NCBI RefSeq assembly: GCF_041886205.1
Contig: NZ_CP169029.1
From: Escherichia coli
Lineage (GTDB): Bacteria; Pseudomonadota; Gammaproteobacteria; Enterobacterales; Enterobacteriaceae
Length of the DNA stretch: 64,000 nt
Reading direction: 5' to 3' (one strand)
Below the pieces are notes generated by a model. It saw only the letters and a list, made by a program, of their open reading frames with translations, did no database searches and had not been told where the DNA came from. The stretch's first letter is position 1, and every line of letters begins with the position of its first letter. This document shows, one piece after another, positions 2,254-8,879 of this stretch. Both the position numbers and the translations under genes were made by a program.

Positions 2254-3879
2254 TTACACACACACTCCCCCCGTCGCCCGCAGCAATAAATCATTCTGGA
2301 TCTGCTCTGACAACCGTACGCCGCCGCGCGTATCTAACATCACCTGACACCACGCCTGCGCCATTGGCGGAGAGGCATATTTCAACATTTGCGCACCGCA
2401 GCCCAGCAGGAATAGCTGATGAGTAATCTCTCGCCCCAGTTCTTCAGCTGGCTTACGCAGCTGCTGCTGTAAACGACGAACCGCGCGATCAAAATAGCGA
2501 TCCTGCCCTTTCACTTCCACAAATGCTTCCGACAATAAGTCGTATACGCCCGCTTGCTTATTGAGAACGCGCAGCACATCCAGGCACATAATGTTGCCGG
2601 AACCTTCCCAAATACTGTTTACCGGCATCTCCCGGTAAAGCCGCGGCAGCTCGCTCTCCTCGCAATAACCAATGCCGCCCAGCACCTCCATCGCTTCGGC
2701 CACAAACGGCATACCTCGTTTGCAGATCACAAATTTTGCCGCAGGTGTAAATAAACGCGCCCACAGAGCTTCTTTGGCATCGGCGCGCCGGTCCCACGCT
2801 CGCGCAAGACGAAACAGCAACGCCGTTTGCCCTTCAAGCTGAAGTGCCATGCGACTTAAGACATGACGCATAAGGGGCTGTTGGATCAATGGATTACCAA
2901 AAACATGGCGTTGATGTGCATGATAAATCGCCAGCGAAAATGCACGGCGCATCATGGCATGGCTACCCAGGGCGCAATCAAAACGCGTCATCCCCCCCAT
3001 TTTCAGGATCAGACGAATTCCTTCCCCTTCCTGCCCCAATAACCAGCCAATGGCATCCTGAAACTCCACTTCACAACTGGCGTTAGAGCGATTACCCAGC
3101 TTATCTTTCAGCCGTTCGAGGCGAATCGCGTTGCGTTGCCCGTCAGGCAAAAAGCGCGGCACAAAAAAGCAGGACAAACCGCCCGCGGTCTGCGCCAGCA
3201 CCAGATGCGCATCGCTTTGCGGAACCGAGAAAAACCATTTATGCCCCACCAGCCGATAAGAGCCATCCTCCAGACGCTCTGCGCGGGTGGTGTTGCTCAT
3301 GACATCGGAACCGCCCTGCTTTTCCGTCATTCCCATGCCAATCAACAAACCGCGTTTTTGCCCACCTGGCAATAAGTGAGAATCGTAGCGATCGCTCAAC
3401 AGCGGCGTGGTCCAGTCCTGAAACGGCGTGGGTAACATCTGTAACAACAATGGCGTGGCGGCAAAGGTCATCGTTATTGGACATAACGACCCCGCCTCAA
3501 CCTGTGCGTGCAACATAAAACGCGCCGCGCGCGCCACAAATGCGCCGGAGCGAGCGTCTTCTTCCCAGGCAAGATTGTGCACCCGATTGGTACATAGCGC
3601 CTGCATCAGCAGGTGCCAGGCGGGGTGAAAACGCACATCGTCCAGACGGCGTCCTTGCGCATCGTAGCGCAATAATTCGGGCGGATTCACATTCGCCAGC
3701 CGCCCCAGTTCAAGGGATTCAGCCGTTCCTAACTGCTGACCAATACTGGCTAGAAAATCGCTATCCCAGCCAGCTCCTTCACGCGTTACCGCTTCGCAAA
3801 GCGCGCCATCAGACAGGTATAAGTTGCTGTTATTTAATGGTATAGGTTGATTAAAAACGGTGTGAGTTTGCCAGTGCAC
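2254..3879 (-). CDS. aidB: isovaleryl-CoA dehydrogenase-like adaptive-response protein AidB
   Basis: Track ORF 547 aa; recognised AidB sequence beginning at GTG (VHWQTHTVFNQ) giving 541 aa. Confidence 0.9.
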   Translation of the reverse strand: MHWQTHTVFNQPIPLNNSNLYLSDGALCEAVTREGAGWDSDFLASIGQQLGTAESLELGRLANVNPPELLRYDAQGRRLDDVRFHPAWHLLMQALCTNRVHNLAWEEDARSGAFVARAARFMLHAQVEAGSLCPITMTFAATPLLLQMLPTPFQDWTTPLLSDRYDSHLLPGGQKRGLLIGMGMTEKQGGSDVMSNTTRAERLEDGSYRLVGHKWFFSVPQSDAHLVLAQTAGGLSCFFVPRFLPDGQRNAIRLERLKDKLGNRSNASCEVEFQDAIGWLLGQEGEGIRLILKMGGMTRFDCALGSHAMMRRAFSLAIYHAHQRHVFGNPLIQQPLMRHVLSRMALQLEGQTALLFRLARAWDRRADAKEALWARLFTPAAKFVICKRGMPFVAEAMEVLGGIGYCEESELPRLYREMPVNSIWEGSGNIMCLDVLRVLNKQAGVYDLLSEAFVEVKGQDRYFDRAVRRLQQQLRKPAEELGREITHQLFLLGCGAQMLKYASPPMAQAWCQVMLDTRGGVRLSEQIQNDLLLRATGGVCV

Positions 3880-3962
3880 TGTGTCTCCCTCCATCAATGG
3901 CAGTCACCATTAGTATGGTCACTGCCATGGATTCATGACAGAAAGAGATTGCTAAAACATTC

Positions 3963-5126
3963 TTATCCAGCAATGTAATGCGGAACGAAACGTGAGCTGT
4001 CTTTGGTGATCAGCGTGTTATCTTCACGGATCCCCATTCCGCACGCTTCATCATCGACAATCCAGCTACCGATGAGTGTGTAGCTATCGCCAAATCGCGG
4101 CAGAGGTTGAAACGCCTGGTAGATCATCGGTTCATCGGCGTAATCACCATCAGCGTGGTCAACGACGTTATTCTGACCGTCGAAAATGGTGACGTTGCCG
4201 CCTTCGCGCGAGTAGATCGGTTTACGCACATAGCTTTCGCCAGCGGCAATCTGCGATTTTTCACCCTCAAACCAGGATGCAAGAAGGTTAGGATGACCAG
4301 GAAAGAAGCGCCAAAGCAGCGGCATTAGCCCTTTATTACTCAAGATACTTTTCCATAACGGCTCCACCCATTGCTCGCGACGCTTGCGCAGCAGCGGACC
4401 GTTATCGTCACGCATCATCCACTCCAGCGGATACAGCTTAAATGCACGCTGGATGACATTATCATCAAGATCGGTCAGTACGCCGCCGACGCCCAAACCG
4501 AGATCTTCAATGTAGATAAACCGCGACTCCTGCCCTGCCTGCTGGGCGCAGTCCTGCAAGTACAGCACGGTGCTCCTGTCTTCATCGGTGTCCTGACAGC
4601 AGCAAAAATAAAACGGTTCCCGACTGTAAAGCTCACTAAAGCGCGAAATCAGGCGTTCCTGAATGGCATTGTACTGATCGGCATCACGCGGAATAATGCC
4701 GCTGCGCCGGGCATCCTCCAGCCACAACCACTGGAAATAAGCCGACTCATACAACGAGGTCGGCGTATCAGCGTTGTACTCCAGCAACTTAACCGGTGCA
4801 TTGCCACACCAGGCAAAATCCATACGGCCATACAGCGAAGGATCGCGTGCGCGCCAGCTTTCGGCGATCACATCCCAGTACAACGACGGGATCGCCAGTT
4901 GCGTCAGGATCTCTTCGTCTTTAACCGCGCGATCCACCACCTCAAGACACATCTGATGCAGTTCCGCAGTCGGTTTTTCGATCTGCTCTTCAATCTGGCG
5001 CAGAGTAAAACGGTAAGCCCGACTCTCGTCCCAATAGATTTCATTGTCGATGATATGAAAGTCGAAACCGTTGTCAGCGGCGATTTGGTCCAGATCCCGC
5101 CGCACAGGAACGTTGTGTCTCAGCAT
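3963..5126 (-). CDS. yjfC: ATP-grasp protein YjfC (glutathionylspermidine synthetase-like)
   Basis: Track ORF trimmed to MLRHNVPVRR start (387 aa); matches E. coli YjfC. Confidence 0.85.
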   Translation of the reverse strand: MLRHNVPVRRDLDQIAADNGFDFHIIDNEIYWDESRAYRFTLRQIEEQIEKPTAELHQMCLEVVDRAVKDEEILTQLAIPSLYWDVIAESWRARDPSLYGRMDFAWCGNAPVKLLEYNADTPTSLYESAYFQWLWLEDARRSGIIPRDADQYNAIQERLISRFSELYSREPFYFCCCQDTDEDRSTVLYLQDCAQQAGQESRFIYIEDLGLGVGGVLTDLDDNVIQRAFKLYPLEWMMRDDNGPLLRKRREQWVEPLWKSILSNKGLMPLLWRFFPGHPNLLASWFEGEKSQIAAGESYVRKPIYSREGGNVTIFDGQNNVVDHADGDYADEPMIYQAFQPLPRFGDSYTLIGSWIVDDEACGMGIREDNTLITKDSSRFVPHYIAG

Positions 5127-5128
5127 GA

Positions 5129-5767
5129 TTAGCCTCCCCAATGCCCACGGGCGCTGGAAGAACGACCATAGCCGCCGCGCGAAACGGTCGACGCTTTTCT
5201 GGTGGTAAAGCCGCCTGAAGAGTAAGACTCTTTTTTGCCAGAACCGGAGCGCCAGGAGTAATCACCAGAAGTGTTGCGCCAGACGGGGCGCGAAGCAAAA
5301 GAGGAACCGCCGCTGTTATAAACAAACTGCTCATCGCGATCTTTACGAATAACCCGGCTTAACAAAAATCCAGAAACGACCGGGATCCAACTCTGTTCAA
5401 CGTTGTCGTAGTAACAATTTTCATACTTAGACTGACAATTCTGCTGAGTCATATTCTTCGGAACATCGGCATAAAATGCTGCTTTGGCGTTGTTCCAGCC
5501 ACGCGCGCAAATGTCGGCATTATTACCGTCATCAATACAATCCTGCACAGTCGAGTAAAACGTTCCGTCGCCGTCGTTATCGACATCGCTACTTTCACTC
5601 CATCCTTTGACTATTAAAAAAGCGGCACCGCCCATTAGCGCCAACGTTAAGTATTTTTGTGCGTAGCGATTGCGACGCGGTTCAAAAGGATTATTCGGTC
5701 TACCAATGCGACTGATCGCTCCGTGACCAATTTTACTGTTATTTCTTGATTTGCGTTTTCTGGCCAT
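5129..5767 (-). CDS. yjfM: DUF1190 protein YjfM
   Basis: 212 aa ORF matching YjfM; N-terminal hydrophobic segment, Gly/Ser-rich C-terminus. Confidence 0.85.
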   Translation of the reverse strand: MARKRKSRNNSKIGHGAISRIGRPNNPFEPRRNRYAQKYLTLALMGGAAFLIVKGWSESSDVDNDGDGTFYSTVQDCIDDGNNADICARGWNNAKAAFYADVPKNMTQQNCQSKYENCYYDNVEQSWIPVVSGFLLSRVIRKDRDEQFVYNSGGSSFASRPVWRNTSGDYSWRSGSGKKESYSSGGFTTRKASTVSRGGYGRSSSARGHWGG

Positions 5768-5776
5768 GATCGTCCA

Positions 5777-6175
5777 TTACCATGTCATACAAGCTGCGTT
5801 AAAAATACCGCCAGCCAGCGCGGCGGTTCCCATAAACATTCCTGCTGCGGTATTGTGATTAATAATTTTTTCGCTTAATGCGGGCATATAAAGTCTGACA
5901 CCAGCAAAAACGAGTAACTGAATCACCAGTGCAATCCCGCCCCAGGCGAAATAGTCTGGAATACTCACCGCATTGATTGCCGCACTGGATAAGGGGATCA
6001 CGTAACCCAACAATGTACCGCTGAATGCTAGTGACGCCGCGGTATTATTGTTTTTGATTAATTGCCATTCGTTGTGCGGTGTAATTTTGGAGTAGATAAA
6101 CAGAAAAATAATCACCATAGCCACGCCAATAAAAAAATAGGCGCTAAAGGCAAGAAGTGAATCCAGTATATGCAT
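5777..6175 (-). CDS. yjfL: DUF350 inner-membrane protein YjfL
   Basis: Track ORF trimmed to MHILDSLLAF start (132 aa); four predicted hydrophobic helices. Confidence 0.8.
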   Translation of the reverse strand: MHILDSLLAFSAYFFIGVAMVIIFLFIYSKITPHNEWQLIKNNNTAASLAFSGTLLGYVIPLSSAAINAVSIPDYFAWGGIALVIQLLVFAGVRLYMPALSEKIINHNTAAGMFMGTAALAGGIFNAACMTW

Positions 6176-6192
6176 TGTAAACGTCCTTGTAA

Positions 6193-6852
6193 TTAACCAA
6201 TAATATGAAGTGATGTCAGCGGAATATCGACACCCAACGCGCGCGAAAATAACCACTCTGGCTCGCCGAGATCGTTAAAAGATTCCTCACCATTTAACAG
6301 CAAATATTCGTAAGTATCTTCGGTCACTTGCCGCTGGTAGCCCATGGTAAAATTATGGACCTCCCATTTGGCATGGTTTTGATTTTCTACTTTTTCCAGC
6401 ATGTAGACGGGTTCGATATTTCCCGGTTCTTCGCTGTTAAAAAATCGCTGCCAGCGTTTTCCCTGCCAGTTTAAGGTCATTGCCCCCATCGCTTTAGCGT
6501 TGATCGCCTCGCGCCAGTGACTCTCTTTACTGATACCGTAGCTCTCTTCATAGACAAAGAGCTTGATATCATCAATGTCATCAATATTTTCGCCGCCGGT
6601 GGTATTGATTTGCAGAAACTCATCGCCTGAAGTGTAGTAGCGGAAAATCTGGCTACCGCCGCCCAGATCGATGCGACTGACAGCGGCTACCGTAAATTCC
6701 TCACCCGGCAGCGCAATCAGCAATTCATCTTCCAGCAAACGAAACGCTAACGTGTCAAGCGTAAAGCCACTATTGAGATGAAGTCCCAGCGGACCGCGAG
6801 CGATAGCAGGCTTATTATCCTTGCCAAACAGACGCTGGAAAAAACCAGACAT
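6193..6852 (-). CDS. yjfK: DUF2491 protein YjfK
   Basis: 219 aa ORF matching YjfK. Confidence 0.85.
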   Translation of the reverse strand: MSGFFQRLFGKDNKPAIARGPLGLHLNSGFTLDTLAFRLLEDELLIALPGEEFTVAAVSRIDLGGGSQIFRYYTSGDEFLQINTTGGENIDDIDDIKLFVYEESYGISKESHWREAINAKAMGAMTLNWQGKRWQRFFNSEEPGNIEPVYMLEKVENQNHAKWEVHNFTMGYQRQVTEDTYEYLLLNGEESFNDLGEPEWLFSRALGVDIPLTSLHIIG

Positions 6853-6902
6853 ATTTTATCCTTAAAATAGTTGCCAGCCTTGCAGTGAGGCTGGCAAAAA
6901 AA

Positions 6903-7601
6903 TTACTCGCCCTGTTGGCGTTGCAGTCTTGCTAATACATCCTGGGCGCTACTTTTATTGCTACCGCCAATTCCGGCTTCCGCCAGCTTTTCGTCAAGGT
7001 CGCGACCGTCTGCGACTTTCTCCAACTGTGCGGCAGCATCCAGGCGAGCCTGACGTTCGGCCTGACGCGTTTGCAGGCGTTTTAAGGATTCTGCCGCTGT
7101 CGAAACGCTGGAAGATGCGCCAACGGTAGAGGTTGTTACAGCCTGTTGTGCACGCTGCATGGCTTCAGTGGCTTTAACGACTTCCATTTGCTGCTCAAAC
7201 TGAGCGATACGCTGCGCTGTCGCTGTAACTGCTTTTTCCACGCCATCACGGGAGACTTCCAGATTCGACAACACTTGCTCTTCAGCGGTAATGAGATTCT
7301 CAAGGCGCGCGATTTCTTCAGCAACTTCGTTAATCAACGACGGATTAACGTTCTTGCTTAACGCTTCCAGCGCACGGGCTTCCAGACTGGCTTTGCGCTC
7401 ACGTAAATCTTTCAGCTTATCGTGACTTAATTTCACCCGCGCCAGCAGATCAACGCGAGATTTTCCGGCTTTATCGAGTTCAGCTTTAGCGTCACGAATA
7501 TGCTGTTCCAGCATGCGCACGCCCTGGGTTTCTTCAATGGATTCTTCCGCCTGGGAGATAAACGATTTCCCCAGCGTAAATAAACTTTTTAAAATTCCCA
7601 T
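6903..7601 (-). CDS. yjfJ: PspA/IM30-family protein YjfJ
   Basis: 232 aa coiled-coil-rich ORF matching YjfJ (PspA/Vipp1 family). Confidence 0.85.
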   Translation of the reverse strand: MGILKSLFTLGKSFISQAEESIEETQGVRMLEQHIRDAKAELDKAGKSRVDLLARVKLSHDKLKDLRERKASLEARALEALSKNVNPSLINEVAEEIARLENLITAEEQVLSNLEVSRDGVEKAVTATAQRIAQFEQQMEVVKATEAMQRAQQAVTTSTVGASSSVSTAAESLKRLQTRQAERQARLDAAAQLEKVADGRDLDEKLAEAGIGGSNKSSAQDVLARLQRQQGE

Positions 7602-7619
7602 AAATACCCGTCCTTGTAA

Positions 7620-8021
7620 TTAGTGTGAATATTCTTCTGTAATTTCAGCCAGATCCAATGCGTTATCTACCAGCGAGGTTATCTCAAGCAGGATATCTTC
7701 AAGAGAAGATTTAAGCGATAACGCCCCGAAAACAATGTAATACTCTTCCTGTTGTACGCTGGAGATCCCTACCGATGACAACGGCATCATCTTCTGATTT
7801 CTTAATAAGAAGGTATTAAATTCATCTGGATTGCTGATACTACTCACCGGACAAATAAAGGTTTCGATAATCATTTGGCGGGAAGTAAAAAGAATATTGA
7901 TTTGCAAATCGCCATAATCATTCATTTTAATAATTAATGCGTTCTCGCTATTTGTTACATCAATATTTTGTTCAGGTACAGTTTGCAGCGCTGTCGCTAG
8001 CGCCAACGGATTCCATGTCAT
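7620..8021 (-). CDS. yjfI: DUF2170 protein YjfI
   Basis: 133 aa ORF matching YjfI; first gene of yjfIJKLMC cluster. Confidence 0.8.
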   Translation of the reverse strand: MTWNPLALATALQTVPEQNIDVTNSENALIIKMNDYGDLQINILFTSRQMIIETFICPVSSISNPDEFNTFLLRNQKMMPLSSVGISSVQQEEYYIVFGALSLKSSLEDILLEITSLVDNALDLAEITEEYSH

Positions 8022-8100
8022 ATATTATTCCATATAGATTAAGTTTAAATATTAATAAAATGAATATTTGCAATACGTAATTATCTTACCAGCTATAGAC

Positions 8101-8127
8101 AAAAAAAAACCATCCAAATCTGGATGG
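8101..8127 (-). terminator. Rho-independent terminator downstream of rlmB
   Basis: Perfect hairpin ccatcca-aat-ctggatgg followed by a 9-nt T-run on the minus strand, 20 nt after rlmB stop. Confidence 0.6.
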
Positions 8128-8147
8128 CTTTTCATAATTCTGAGAAA

Positions 8148-8879
8148 TTAGCTGCGCTGGCGCACCGCTTCAAATAAGCAAATTCCGGTCGCAACCGAAA
8201 CGTTCAGGGAAGAAACGCTTCCAGCCATCGGGATGCTGATCAACTCATCGCAATGTTCACGAGTCAGGCGACGCATACCTTCACCTTCCGCACCCATCAC
8301 CAGCGCCAGGCGTCCGGTCATTTTGCTCTGATAGAGTGTATGATCCGCCTCGCCTGCCGTACCGACGATCCAGATATTCTCTTCCTGCAACATACGCATG
8401 GTGCGCGCAAGGTTAGTCACCCGAATCAGCGGAACGCTTTCTGCCGCGCCGCAGGCTACTTTTTTCGCCGTAGCGTTGAGCTGTGCGGAGCGATCTTTCG
8501 GCACAATCACCGCATGAACGCCTGCGGCGTCCGCACTACGCAGGCACGCGCCGAGGTTGTGCGGATCGGTTACGCCGTCGAGGATCAGCAGGAACGGTTG
8601 ATCGAGCGAAGCGATCAGATCCGGCAGATCGTTTTCCTGATACTGACGTCCTGGCTTCACGCGGGCGATAATGCCCTGATGCACGGCACCGTCGCTTTTC
8701 TCGTCGAGATATTGGCGGTTTGCCAACTGGATAACCACGCCCTGAGACTCAAGGGCGTGAATCAGCGGTAACAGACGTTTATCTTCACGGCCTTTTAAAA
8801 TAAAGACTTCCTGAAAACGTTCAGGGGCGCGCTCCAGCAGGGCCTGCACTGCGTGGATGCCGTAAATCATTTCGCTCAT
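8148..8879 (-). CDS. rlmB: 23S rRNA (Gm2251) 2'-O-methyltransferase RlmB
   Basis: 243 aa ORF matching RlmB (SpoU family). Confidence 0.9.

Follow-up and report, generated by a model that had tools for sequence, protein, structure and literature searches.

A C-terminal glycine pair of DUF1190 proteins as a candidate substrate of YjfC-type ligases in the Escherichia coli yjfIJKLMC cluster

The gene cluster yjfIJKLMC, located at positions 3963–8021 of a 64,000-nucleotide stretch of Escherichia coli DNA (RefSeq contig NZ_CP169029.1, assembly GCF_041886205.1; this whole stretch is hereafter the window), raises the question of what the ATP-grasp ligase YjfC acts on, and of why its gene is found together with that of a PspA-like protein. 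The locus itself is ordinary, being made up of core, annotated E. coli genes in an operon type already published in 2024. Our answer, to which we grant not quite an even chance, is that the cluster is a composite of two modules, each also found apart in other organisms, that together serve envelope maintenance, and that YjfC amidates the C-terminal glycine of the membrane-anchored protein YjfM with a polyamine. A wider claim, tentative and held at clearly less than an even chance, is that ligases of the YjfC/YgiC type cap with a polyamine the invariant Gly-Gly or Gly-Ser end of a dedicated DUF1190-type partner before its export. The value of the work lies in a specific and cheaply testable substrate candidate for YjfC and YgiC, which bears on the gene pairs found beside TolC and beside a PspA homologue.

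The ligase YjfC and the tail of its partner

YjfC was near-identical to the PDB entries 7UK6 and 7UK7, named "acid-amine ligase YjfC", and matched its paralogue YgiC (7UK8) at 2e-129; the crystal structures in the PDB cover both YjfC (7UK6/7UK7) and YgiC (7UK8/7UKA). Matches to the entries 2IO7 and 2VOB were obtained at 1e-33 to 1e-38. Against the model of the bifunctional glutathionylspermidine synthetase, GspS (NF007801), the protein scored 165.5 bits, where the cut-off is 882, and the best stretch covered model positions 487–613 only. As judged from these matches, YjfC is a stand-alone ATP-grasp ligase of the glutathionylspermidine synthetase family, devoid of the N-terminal CHAP amidase domain. 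GspS and trypanothione synthetase, which belong to the same ATP-grasp family, join a C-terminal glycine carboxylate to the amine of a polyamine, and in the case of GspS it is the glycine carboxylate of glutathione that is joined to spermidine; YjfC differs from GspS in the missing CHAP domain and in that it is reported not to use glutathione. In the summary of Pederick 2023 and Sui 2012 given by a 2025 review (PMC11762307), YjfC and YgiC lack glutathionylspermidine synthetase activity and show peptide-spermidine ligase activity in vitro, and the same review describes their physiological substrate as unknown. A first-pass annotation of the window had taken the operon to be without established function, and had named a published biochemical assignment to a known pathway as one finding that would speak against its interpretation. 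This view has been overtaken in part, as the peptide-spermidine ligase activity of YjfC/YgiC, the structure of BacA (a homologue of YjfI) and an effect on heat tolerance are all published; it stands as regards the pathway and the physiological substrate, neither of which has been assigned.

One genome per species was scanned with an alignment of the YjfC family, and 80 loci were recovered from alpha-, beta- and gamma-proteobacteria. A DUF1190-type partner, the family to which YjfM belongs, was present in 73 of them: 60 loci had its gene directly upstream of that of the ligase, 11 had it in a divergent half-operon, and two at some other place. Among the remaining loci, the contig was cut or too short upstream of the ligase in four, and only tiny open reading frames (ORFs) preceded it in three. 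The 60 take in the low-complexity partners of Bradyrhizobium, which were missed by the DUF1190 hidden Markov model and recovered by their tail pattern and by eye; these share with the family just the N-terminal KRS..ALL.MG and the C-terminal SRGGFGSF.H.F.GGG. The partners ended in GG in 54 and in GS in 10 out of 72 cases, against 18 and 6, respectively, of the 2596 long background ORFs of the same loci. Taken in the opposite direction, from diverse DUF1190 proteins outward, the ligase gene was found immediately downstream in 7 of 7 informative contigs. The ligase is thus linked to a partner with a fixed C-terminal motif, which is the linkage expected of an ATP-grasp ligase with a dedicated substrate.

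YjfM itself starts with a basic tail, in which residues 1–38 include 12 K/R, and further has a single hydrophobic segment, a four-Cys domain and a basic, Gly/Ser-rich and disordered tail ending in HWGG. Its last 25 residues are TTRKASTVSRGGYGRSSSARGHWGG, and its C-terminal end reads ...TVSRGGYGRSSSARGHWGG. A search with YjfM among 1.8 billion representative proteins retrieved 126 relatives, from which 97 full-length-looking representatives were kept at 50% identity, 75 of them ending in GG and 14 in GS. In the C-terminus-anchored alignment of the 89 representatives with a G[FYW]G motif, position -2 was occupied by Gly in 87 and position -1 by Gly in 72 or Ser in 15, and position -3 was most often aromatic (Trp in 50, Phe in 11). 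In 31 of 74 cases, more than for any other distance, the SRGGFG motif started at 17 residues from the C-terminus. Within the Gly/Ser-rich tail of DUF1190 proteins, the GG dipeptide was found in 81% of cases at the terminus versus 6.7% of the internal positions, and the last 40 residues were strongly basic, with 5.8 K/R versus 0.9 D/E.

A lipobox-like motif was detected in 70 of the 97 DUF1190 proteins. No lipobox was found in the YjfM encoded in the window, which reads ...FLIVKGW56SE at the corresponding place, whereas its close E. coli-type relatives P0121, P0122 and P0133 have the lipobox-position Cys (...FFVLKGC). Because Trp56 stands in place of this Cys, the YjfM of the window would not be lipidable and would be anchored through its hydrophobic segment. 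YjfL, encoded just before it, is a membrane protein with four hydrophobic segments, and a member of its family, DUF350, is usually encoded ahead of the DUF1190-ligase pair.

The docking of the tail on the ligase was modelled with AlphaFold2 on a fusion of YjfC, a Gly-Ser linker of 43 amino acids and the last 25 residues of YjfM, with an alignment of 33 paired rows, each made up of a ligase, the linker and the cognate tail. The predicted local distance difference test score (pLDDT) was above 90 for the ligase and 36–40 for the linker. Tail residues 431–440 (TTRKASTVSR) reached a pLDDT of 85, with 437–440 (TVSR) forming a beta strand, and the next ten residues had a pLDDT of 64. From this pattern, the model predicts docking of the conserved motif and leaves the terminus unplaced.

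Homologues of YjfC were also detected in 143 phage records. In all eight phage ligase loci that were opened, just upstream of the ligase lay the gene of a lipoprotein whose tail is rich in Ser/Gly and terminates in GG or GS. These correspond to the Aeromonas phages 60AhydR15PP and 4_4572 (the latter also with a K+ mini-channel of 124 amino acids), the Acinetobacter phage Abraxas, the phage-like contig L003, the Achromobacter phage Motura, in which the pair adjoins a homospermidine synthase gene (a linkage noted earlier, PMC9992855), and the phages PhiW-14 of Delftia, FADO of Bacillus and Kassivere of Pseudomonas, with distant ligases of 24–27% identity. The last three were meant as a negative control, yet each of them presented a partner, which leaves the background ORFs as the sole negative set. 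Counted by genus, the records with a ligase and with a partner amounted to 42 and 42 in Aeromonas phages and to 57 and 52 in Acinetobacter phages. In PHROGs, the partner corresponds to the unannotated family phrog_3739 and DUF350 to the likewise unannotated phrog_29907 (2e-45). In addition, the Cronobacter phage CR3 (L092, 1141–1755) and the Citrobacter phage CF1 (L093, 1153–1731) encode YgiB-like lipoproteins with the N-terminus MKRTKVINK.RFRK... and tails ending in ...SSSFGG and ...GSFGG, respectively, and no Cronobacter or Citrobacter phages were present among the genera listed for ligase matches. If the tails of these two lipoproteins are modified, they would rely on the YgiC or YjfC of the host.

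The same two-gene module, formed by a DUF1190 protein and a ligase, is present a second time in E. coli as YgiB/YgiC, next to tolC and devoid of PspA, DUF2170, DUF2491 and DUF350 genes. The YgiB-type proteins have a canonical lipobox, in contrast to the Trp of YjfM in the window; in this comparison, YgiB-like family members and phage homologues stood in for E. coli YgiB. The ygiBC genes belong to the tolC operon and have been connected with the impaired growth of tolC mutants (PMC11762307). In work attributed to Dhamdhere and Zgurskaya in 2010, yjfMC is said to be redundant with ygiBC in this respect, the joint loss of both pairs making the tolC defect worse when minimal glucose medium is used.

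Several minor observations concern these same proteins. Like DUF1190, the DUF350 family also shows a fixed extreme C-terminus, which reads ...NAACMTW in YjfL and ...NAACMTY, ...NAACMIY or ...NAASMIY in its relatives; this second fixed end of the module was seen too in locus L002 (2754–3155) and in Bradyrhizobium loci. In three Bradyrhizobium loci with a second copy of the ligase (L040, 7798–7998; L064, 7614–7997; L048, 7639–7995), the region upstream holds only a tiny possible ORF, such as MPTMRGGQIIGGRVIPGHSGG and MLTMMGGGQIIHGNSGS, which could encode a minimal Gly-terminated peptide substrate or could be mere conserved leader sequence. Two tandem genes for small tailed proteins separate DUF350 from the ligase in the Bradyrhizobium loci L018 (7184–7624 and 7687–7959), L020 and L034, and in L018 their tails end in ...FGFGGG and ...SHGGS. 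Finally, natural YjfM-YjfC fusion proteins were considered and rejected: the apparent fusions are read-throughs in some E. coli assemblies, in which a frameshift in the tail of yjfM continues into yjfC with loss of the tail SRGGYG...WGG (P0253, of 601 amino acids and 130 member sequences; P0246–P0250, of 548 amino acids). The frameshift would be the consequence either of pseudogenisation in some lineages or of sequencing error.

The PspA-like genes and the assembly of the cluster

YjfJ matched the PspA/IM30 family PF04012 with 196.7 bits (cut-off 33.9) over profile positions 1–220 of 220. No match was obtained at an E value of 0.01 when its single sequence was compared with the PDB; a profile built from 12 sequences of the YjfJ family did match the Vipp1/PspA structure 6ZVR (2e-13, profile positions 9–235 on chain positions 1–216) and E. 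coli PspA, 4WHE (8e-4). On these profile matches, YjfJ is a genuine but divergent member of the PspA/IM30/Vipp1 family, i.e., of the bacterial ESCRT-III proteins. A 48-mer of YjfJ has been modelled, by homology only (PMC12492005). YjfI matched the crystal structure of the DUF2170 protein BacA, 8Q8O, at 1e-16 over residues 3–128 in a PDB sequence search, and the NCBIfam model of BacA at 1e-26, which is under the cut-off of that model. BacA from Pseudomonas aeruginosa adopts a CesT-like fold in its crystal structure (PMC10948618; the fold is also described in PMC11237479), and the probability of its interaction with the PspA homologue BacB was predicted with AlphaFold2 as 0.981 (PMC13092808). 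YjfI is thus a CesT/Tir-like chaperone-fold protein and probably the partner or regulator of YjfJ. No type III secretion genes were found in the cluster or its flanks, and the conserved neighbour of YjfI is the PspA homologue. YjfK is cytoplasmic and rich in beta structure, and many of its charged residues are invariant. A search for Pfam links of DUF2491, DUF350, DUF1190 and DUF2170 to other families returned nothing useful at E values up to 10.

The order of the first two genes is that of the bac operon of P. aeruginosa, in which a DUF2170 protein (BacA/PA3732) is followed by a PspA homologue (BacB/PA3731); other genes come next there, and the ligase, DUF1190, DUF350 and DUF2491 are missing. 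This operon has phenotypes in biofilm formation, rhamnolipid secretion and virulence (PMC10948618). The canonical Psp (PspF, PspABC) and LiaIH systems have in common with the yjf cluster the PspA/IM30/Vipp1 family and the benefit of raised expression under membrane-perturbing heat; they differ in that the yjf cluster is devoid of PspF, PspB, PspC and LiaI, the partner of YjfJ being the CesT-like protein. PspF, PspB and PspC were absent among the six proteins and the flanking genes, and the cluster is not a canonical Psp regulon by this standard.

Across the 80 ligase loci of the survey, DUF2170, PspA, DUF2491 and DUF350 were present all together in 14, and DUF2170 and PspA were present in three, on truncated contigs. 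DUF350 was the sole extra gene in 37 loci and was found in 51 in total, the bare DUF1190-ligase pair made up 26, and DUF2491 was never seen without the dyad of DUF2170 and PspA. In Sphingomonas, Caulobacter, Brevundimonas and Pseudovibrio, the six genes were kept together in a different arrangement, with DUF2170-PspA-ligase in one operon and DUF2491-DUF350-DUF1190 divergent from it. From this grouping, we take the cluster of E. coli to consist of a PspA module (YjfI, YjfJ and YjfK) linked to a ligase module (YjfM and YjfC, as a rule with YjfL), both of which also occur separately.

This gene set had been described by Ravi et al. (2024, mSystems; PMC11237479) as the "third group" of CesT/Tir-PspA operons, with a GspS-like ATP-grasp ligase, DUF350, DUF1190, DUF2491 and sometimes a K+ channel. 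These authors proposed a coupling of PspA-based membrane dynamics to polyamines; in their view, DUF1190 is a metal-chelating lipoprotein, and the ligase belongs to polyamine metabolism. The E. coli cluster is of the same operon type, and our survey recovered its gene set, including the variant with the K+ channel, which is missing from the E. coli version. That paper makes no mention of the invariant C-terminal Gly-Gly, of the phage copies, or of DUF1190 as a substrate. The first-pass annotation had suggested an envelope-stress module whose ligase acts on a small molecule or peptide; the general idea agrees with PMC11237479, and the interpretation overall finds partial support.

The K+ channel gene (Ion_trans_2) was recurrently located just upstream of the DUF350, DUF1190 and ligase genes (L002, 1584–2645; L091, 3846–4889; the phage locus L094, 2630–3004). 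Its recurrence hints at a link to ion or membrane-potential homeostasis, the channel being absent from the cluster of E. coli.

Proposed mechanism and competing explanations

In the first of the two modules, YjfJ would act on the cytoplasmic face of the inner membrane in the manner of PspA/Vipp1-type proteins, the CesT-like YjfI would bind or restrain it, and YjfK would accompany both. In the second, formed by YjfL, YjfM and YjfC, the cytoplasmic YjfC would dock on the tail segment TVSRGG(F/Y)G of YjfM and activate its terminal Gly-Gly carboxylate as an acyl phosphate. The carboxylate would then be amidated with a polyamine, which could be spermidine in E. coli and homospermidine in loci linked to a gene for homospermidine synthase. 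The reaction would take place before the tail crosses the membrane, and YjfM would afterwards carry a polycationic tip at the end of its long basic tail into the periplasm, beside YjfL. The proposal of YjfM as the substrate draws on the obligate proximity of ligase and partner, the fixed Gly carboxylate on a flexible tail, the conserved docking motif, the chemistry of GspS, and the reported ligation of peptides to spermidine; this role of YjfM, the timing of the modification before export and the function of the modified tail are what we infer from them. The proposal was not found in the literature searched, which did not extend to the key biochemical paper, Pederick 2023.

Related chemistry is known from other ATP-grasp enzymes. 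RimK with the ribosomal protein S6, LysX/ArgX with LysW, and tubulin-tyrosine ligase all form an amide at the conserved C-terminal tail of a partner protein, and the genes for LysW and LysX are adjacent. The analogy would hold for the tail and its dedicated ligase; the groups added by those enzymes are amino acids and their targets cytoplasmic proteins, whereas YjfC would place a polyamine on an exported lipoprotein or membrane protein.

If correct, this mechanism would represent an unrecognised post-translational modification spread across Proteobacteria and many phages, those of Bacillus included. Of the two copies in E. coli, one would be wired to the PspA module, which is ESCRT-III-like, and the second to TolC. 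It would amount to a new polyamine-based modification of exported proteins and to a mechanistic tie between polyamine metabolism and envelope stress responses. A role would be given directly to DUF1190, and by association to DUF350 and DUF2491, and the presence of the gene pair in many T4-like and jumbo phages would be explained. More speculatively, the tethered primary amine would allow anionic envelope polymers to be bound by the tail or cross-linked with it.

Several points weigh against polyamine amidation of YjfM within a composite system. The chief objection is one of compartments: the tail of YjfM should be periplasmic and an ATP-dependent ligase cytoplasmic. As lipoprotein signal peptides are present in most DUF1190 proteins, and as YjfM has 12 K/R ahead of its hydrophobic segment as well as four Cys, the tail is expected in the periplasm, and the ligase would have to act on it before export. 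Besides Gly-Gly, the terminal pairs GS, AT and SS also occur. In the fusion model, the last eight residues, SARGHWGG, have a pLDDT below 50 and were left unplaced by AlphaFold2; the run covered the native tail only, and was read from its per-residue scores and secondary structure. As for the other module, YjfJ has been reported to be devoid of the large oligomers typical of PspA (PMC5333519), and no recognisable fold relative was found for YjfK (DUF2491) when one was looked for. Finally, the "YjfJ iModulon" consists of yjfIJKL only, with yjfMC outside (PMC12492005), which may mean that E. coli regulates each module on its own.

Among the competing explanations, a somewhat unlikely one is that YjfC makes a soluble peptide-polyamine or acid-amine conjugate, with YjfM as a periplasmic partner for its binding, sensing or anchoring, and with a product that might be exported by way of YjfL or of routes that depend on TolC. 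The reported activity on peptides and spermidine, with a physiological substrate described as unknown, would fit such a product, as would the location of the enzyme and the YjfM tail in different compartments, the presence of the paralogous ygiBC in one operon with the exporter gene tolC, and the linkage of polyamine-synthesis genes in some relatives. However, neither a conserved small peptide precursor nor a peptide synthetase gene was found beside the ligase in the 80 loci, and a binding partner would have no need of an invariant extreme C-terminus on a disordered tail. Moreover, the AlphaFold2 model would place that tail on the ligase, and in phages, whether their hosts are Gram-negative or Gram-positive, the pair is kept and its tail is what is best conserved.

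The possibility that the six genes are two independent units, which we regard as unlikely, supposes that yjfIJ(KL) is the operon of a PspA paralogue for heat and membrane stress, that yjfMC is unrelated to it, and that their order is accidental. Apart from the limits of the iModulon, in its favour are the hairpins detected in the yjfJ-yjfK gap and in the 3' end of yjfL, the occurrence of the DUF1190-ligase pair alone in 26 of the 80 loci and with tolC in E. coli, and the DUF2170-PspA dyad without a ligase in the bac operon. The expression data concern the first four genes: a 1-nt deletion 80 bp upstream of yjfI turns on yjfIJKL in E. coli evolved at 45 °C (PMC12492005), and plasmid activation of yjfIJKL lifts the growth rate at 42 °C more than 1.21-fold (PMC11472167). 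The hairpin within yjfL may account for the end of the iModulon at this gene. Nevertheless, the full set was found in 14 of the 80 loci, in both alpha- and gamma-proteobacteria, and together with a K+ channel in a metagenome contig, and it is kept even when split into divergent operons, the ligase gene being then directly behind that of PspA. The gaps of 9 and 2 nt around yjfM, together with the absence of a detected promoter before it, also favour read-through from the upstream genes.

An anti-phage defence function, for example abortive infection through a PspA-like membrane effector, is very improbable. PspA does owe its name to phage shock, SIR2/TIR and nSTAND genes lie beside the cluster in one related metagenome contig, and homologues of three of the genes are found in phages; however, PADLOC returned no meaningful match for the six proteins, only weak coiled-coil matches of YjfJ (E values of 5e-4 and 2e-3), and the cluster is core: 5425 of the 5426 complete E. 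coli genomes matched it, its site between rlmB and aidB is fixed and its composition normal, whereas defence islands are typically variable. Scarcely credible, and contradicted by our results, is that the terminal Gly-Gly is conserved as DNA because the last codons of YjfM, GGA GGC, form the Shine-Dalgarno sequence GGAGG of the coupled ligase gene 5 nt before its ATG, since GG is kept in 11 of 11 divergent loci in which the DUF1190 gene is last with no ligase downstream, in phage genes parted from the ligase by other genes (L004, L005, L095, L097) and in the lipoproteins of CR3 and CF1, phages of two genera absent from those listed for ligase matches. Nor would the idea account for an aromatic residue at -3 or for the SRGGFG motif.

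Gene layout and expression signals

The coordinates of the genes and of the other features of the cluster are collected in Table 1. All six Pfam matches were above the gathering score, and the starts of yjfL and yjfC correspond to the ATG codons of the RefSeq annotation, the ORF list having begun further upstream (GTG at 6256 and TTG at 5141, respectively). From yjfI to yjfC, the gaps between consecutive genes measure 18, 50, 17, 9 and 2 nt, so that the yjfC start sits 2 nt past the stop codon of yjfM. The close packing of six co-directional genes, the domains assigned to the proteins other than YjfM and the Gly/Ser-rich, membrane-anchored nature of YjfM, all proposed in the first-pass annotation, agree with these coordinates and gaps, with the strong Pfam matches, and with the hydrophobic segment and Gly/Ser-rich C-terminal half of YjfM, respectively.

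Table 1. Position of the genes, tail codons and candidate signals of the yjfIJKLMC cluster in the window
Feature	Position	Strand	Size or sequence	Match, basis or remark
yjfI	7620-8021	minus	133 aa	Pfam DUF2170, 1.5e-44
yjfJ	6903-7601	minus	232 aa	Pfam PspA_IM30 (PF04012), 5e-58
yjfK	6193-6852	minus	219 aa	Pfam DUF2491, 3e-71
yjfL	5777-6175	minus	132 aa	Pfam DUF350, 1e-33
yjfM	5129-5767	minus	212 aa	Pfam DUF1190, 1e-17
yjfC	3963-5126	minus	387 aa	Pfam GSP_synth (PF03738), 1e-148
YjfM residues 194-201	5165-5188	minus	TVSRGGYG	conserved SRGGFG-type motif
YjfM Gly211-Gly212	5132-5137	minus	GGA GGC	proposed acceptor carboxylate; also GGAGG Shine-Dalgarno of yjfC
YjfM Trp56	5600-5602	minus		residue in place of the lipobox Cys
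YjfL fixed C-terminus	5777-5800	minus	NAACMTW	
AT-rich region upstream of yjfI	8022-8103	minus		putative promoter region; sequence
Terminator-like hairpin after rlmB	8104-8133	minus	13-pair stem, then T run	consensus scan
Hairpin in yjfJ-yjfK gap	6871-6897	minus	10 pairs, 6 G-C	-17.1 kcal/mol, z = -3.0 versus shuffles
Terminator-like hairpin in yjfL 3' end	5807-5827	minus		consensus scan only
Repeat at yjfI/yjfJ junction	7609-7622	minus	14 nt	stop codon and ribosome-binding region
Repeat at yjfK/yjfL junction	6182-6195	minus	14 nt	stop codon and ribosome-binding region
yjfC stop to aidB start	3880-3962	minus	83 nt	no terminator-like site

The terminator-like hairpin found after rlmB would part the upstream genes nsrR-rnr-rlmB from yjfI. 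The scan for the sigma-70 consensus gave no site upstream of yjfI or yjfM, with a total number of sites no greater than in shuffled sequence. The hairpin in the 50-nt gap between yjfJ and yjfK is a possible attenuator, partial terminator or mRNA stabiliser, and the Rfam search of positions 3600–8500 returned no match at E values up to 1. Beyond the last gene of the cluster, read-through from yjfC into aidB is possible, given the absence of a terminator-like site between them and the same orientation of both genes.

The stretch 3800–8200 was 100% identical to several complete E. coli genomes in which the genes are annotated as yjfI to yjfC, and in the RefSeq annotation of matching chromosomes the cluster is flanked by rlmB on one side and aidB on the other. 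The view that this is a conserved and already annotated locus, rather than a new insertion, was thus confirmed, also by its presence in nearly all the complete genomes, 5326 of which showed query coverage of at least 80%; its base composition is unremarkable. Only eight complete genomes reached at least 99% identity to the cluster stretch.

The cluster is occasionally disrupted. In locus L009 (3070–4089), yjfJ and yjfK are around 1 kb apart, and in one E. coli genome of serotype O78 (NZ_CP084096.1) an IS1 element is inserted inside the cluster. Finally, the identical 14-nt string TAATTACAAGGACG, made up of the stop codon and the ribosome-binding region, is present at the yjfI/yjfJ and yjfK/yjfL junctions, which hints at matched translation-initiation regions or at an old duplication.

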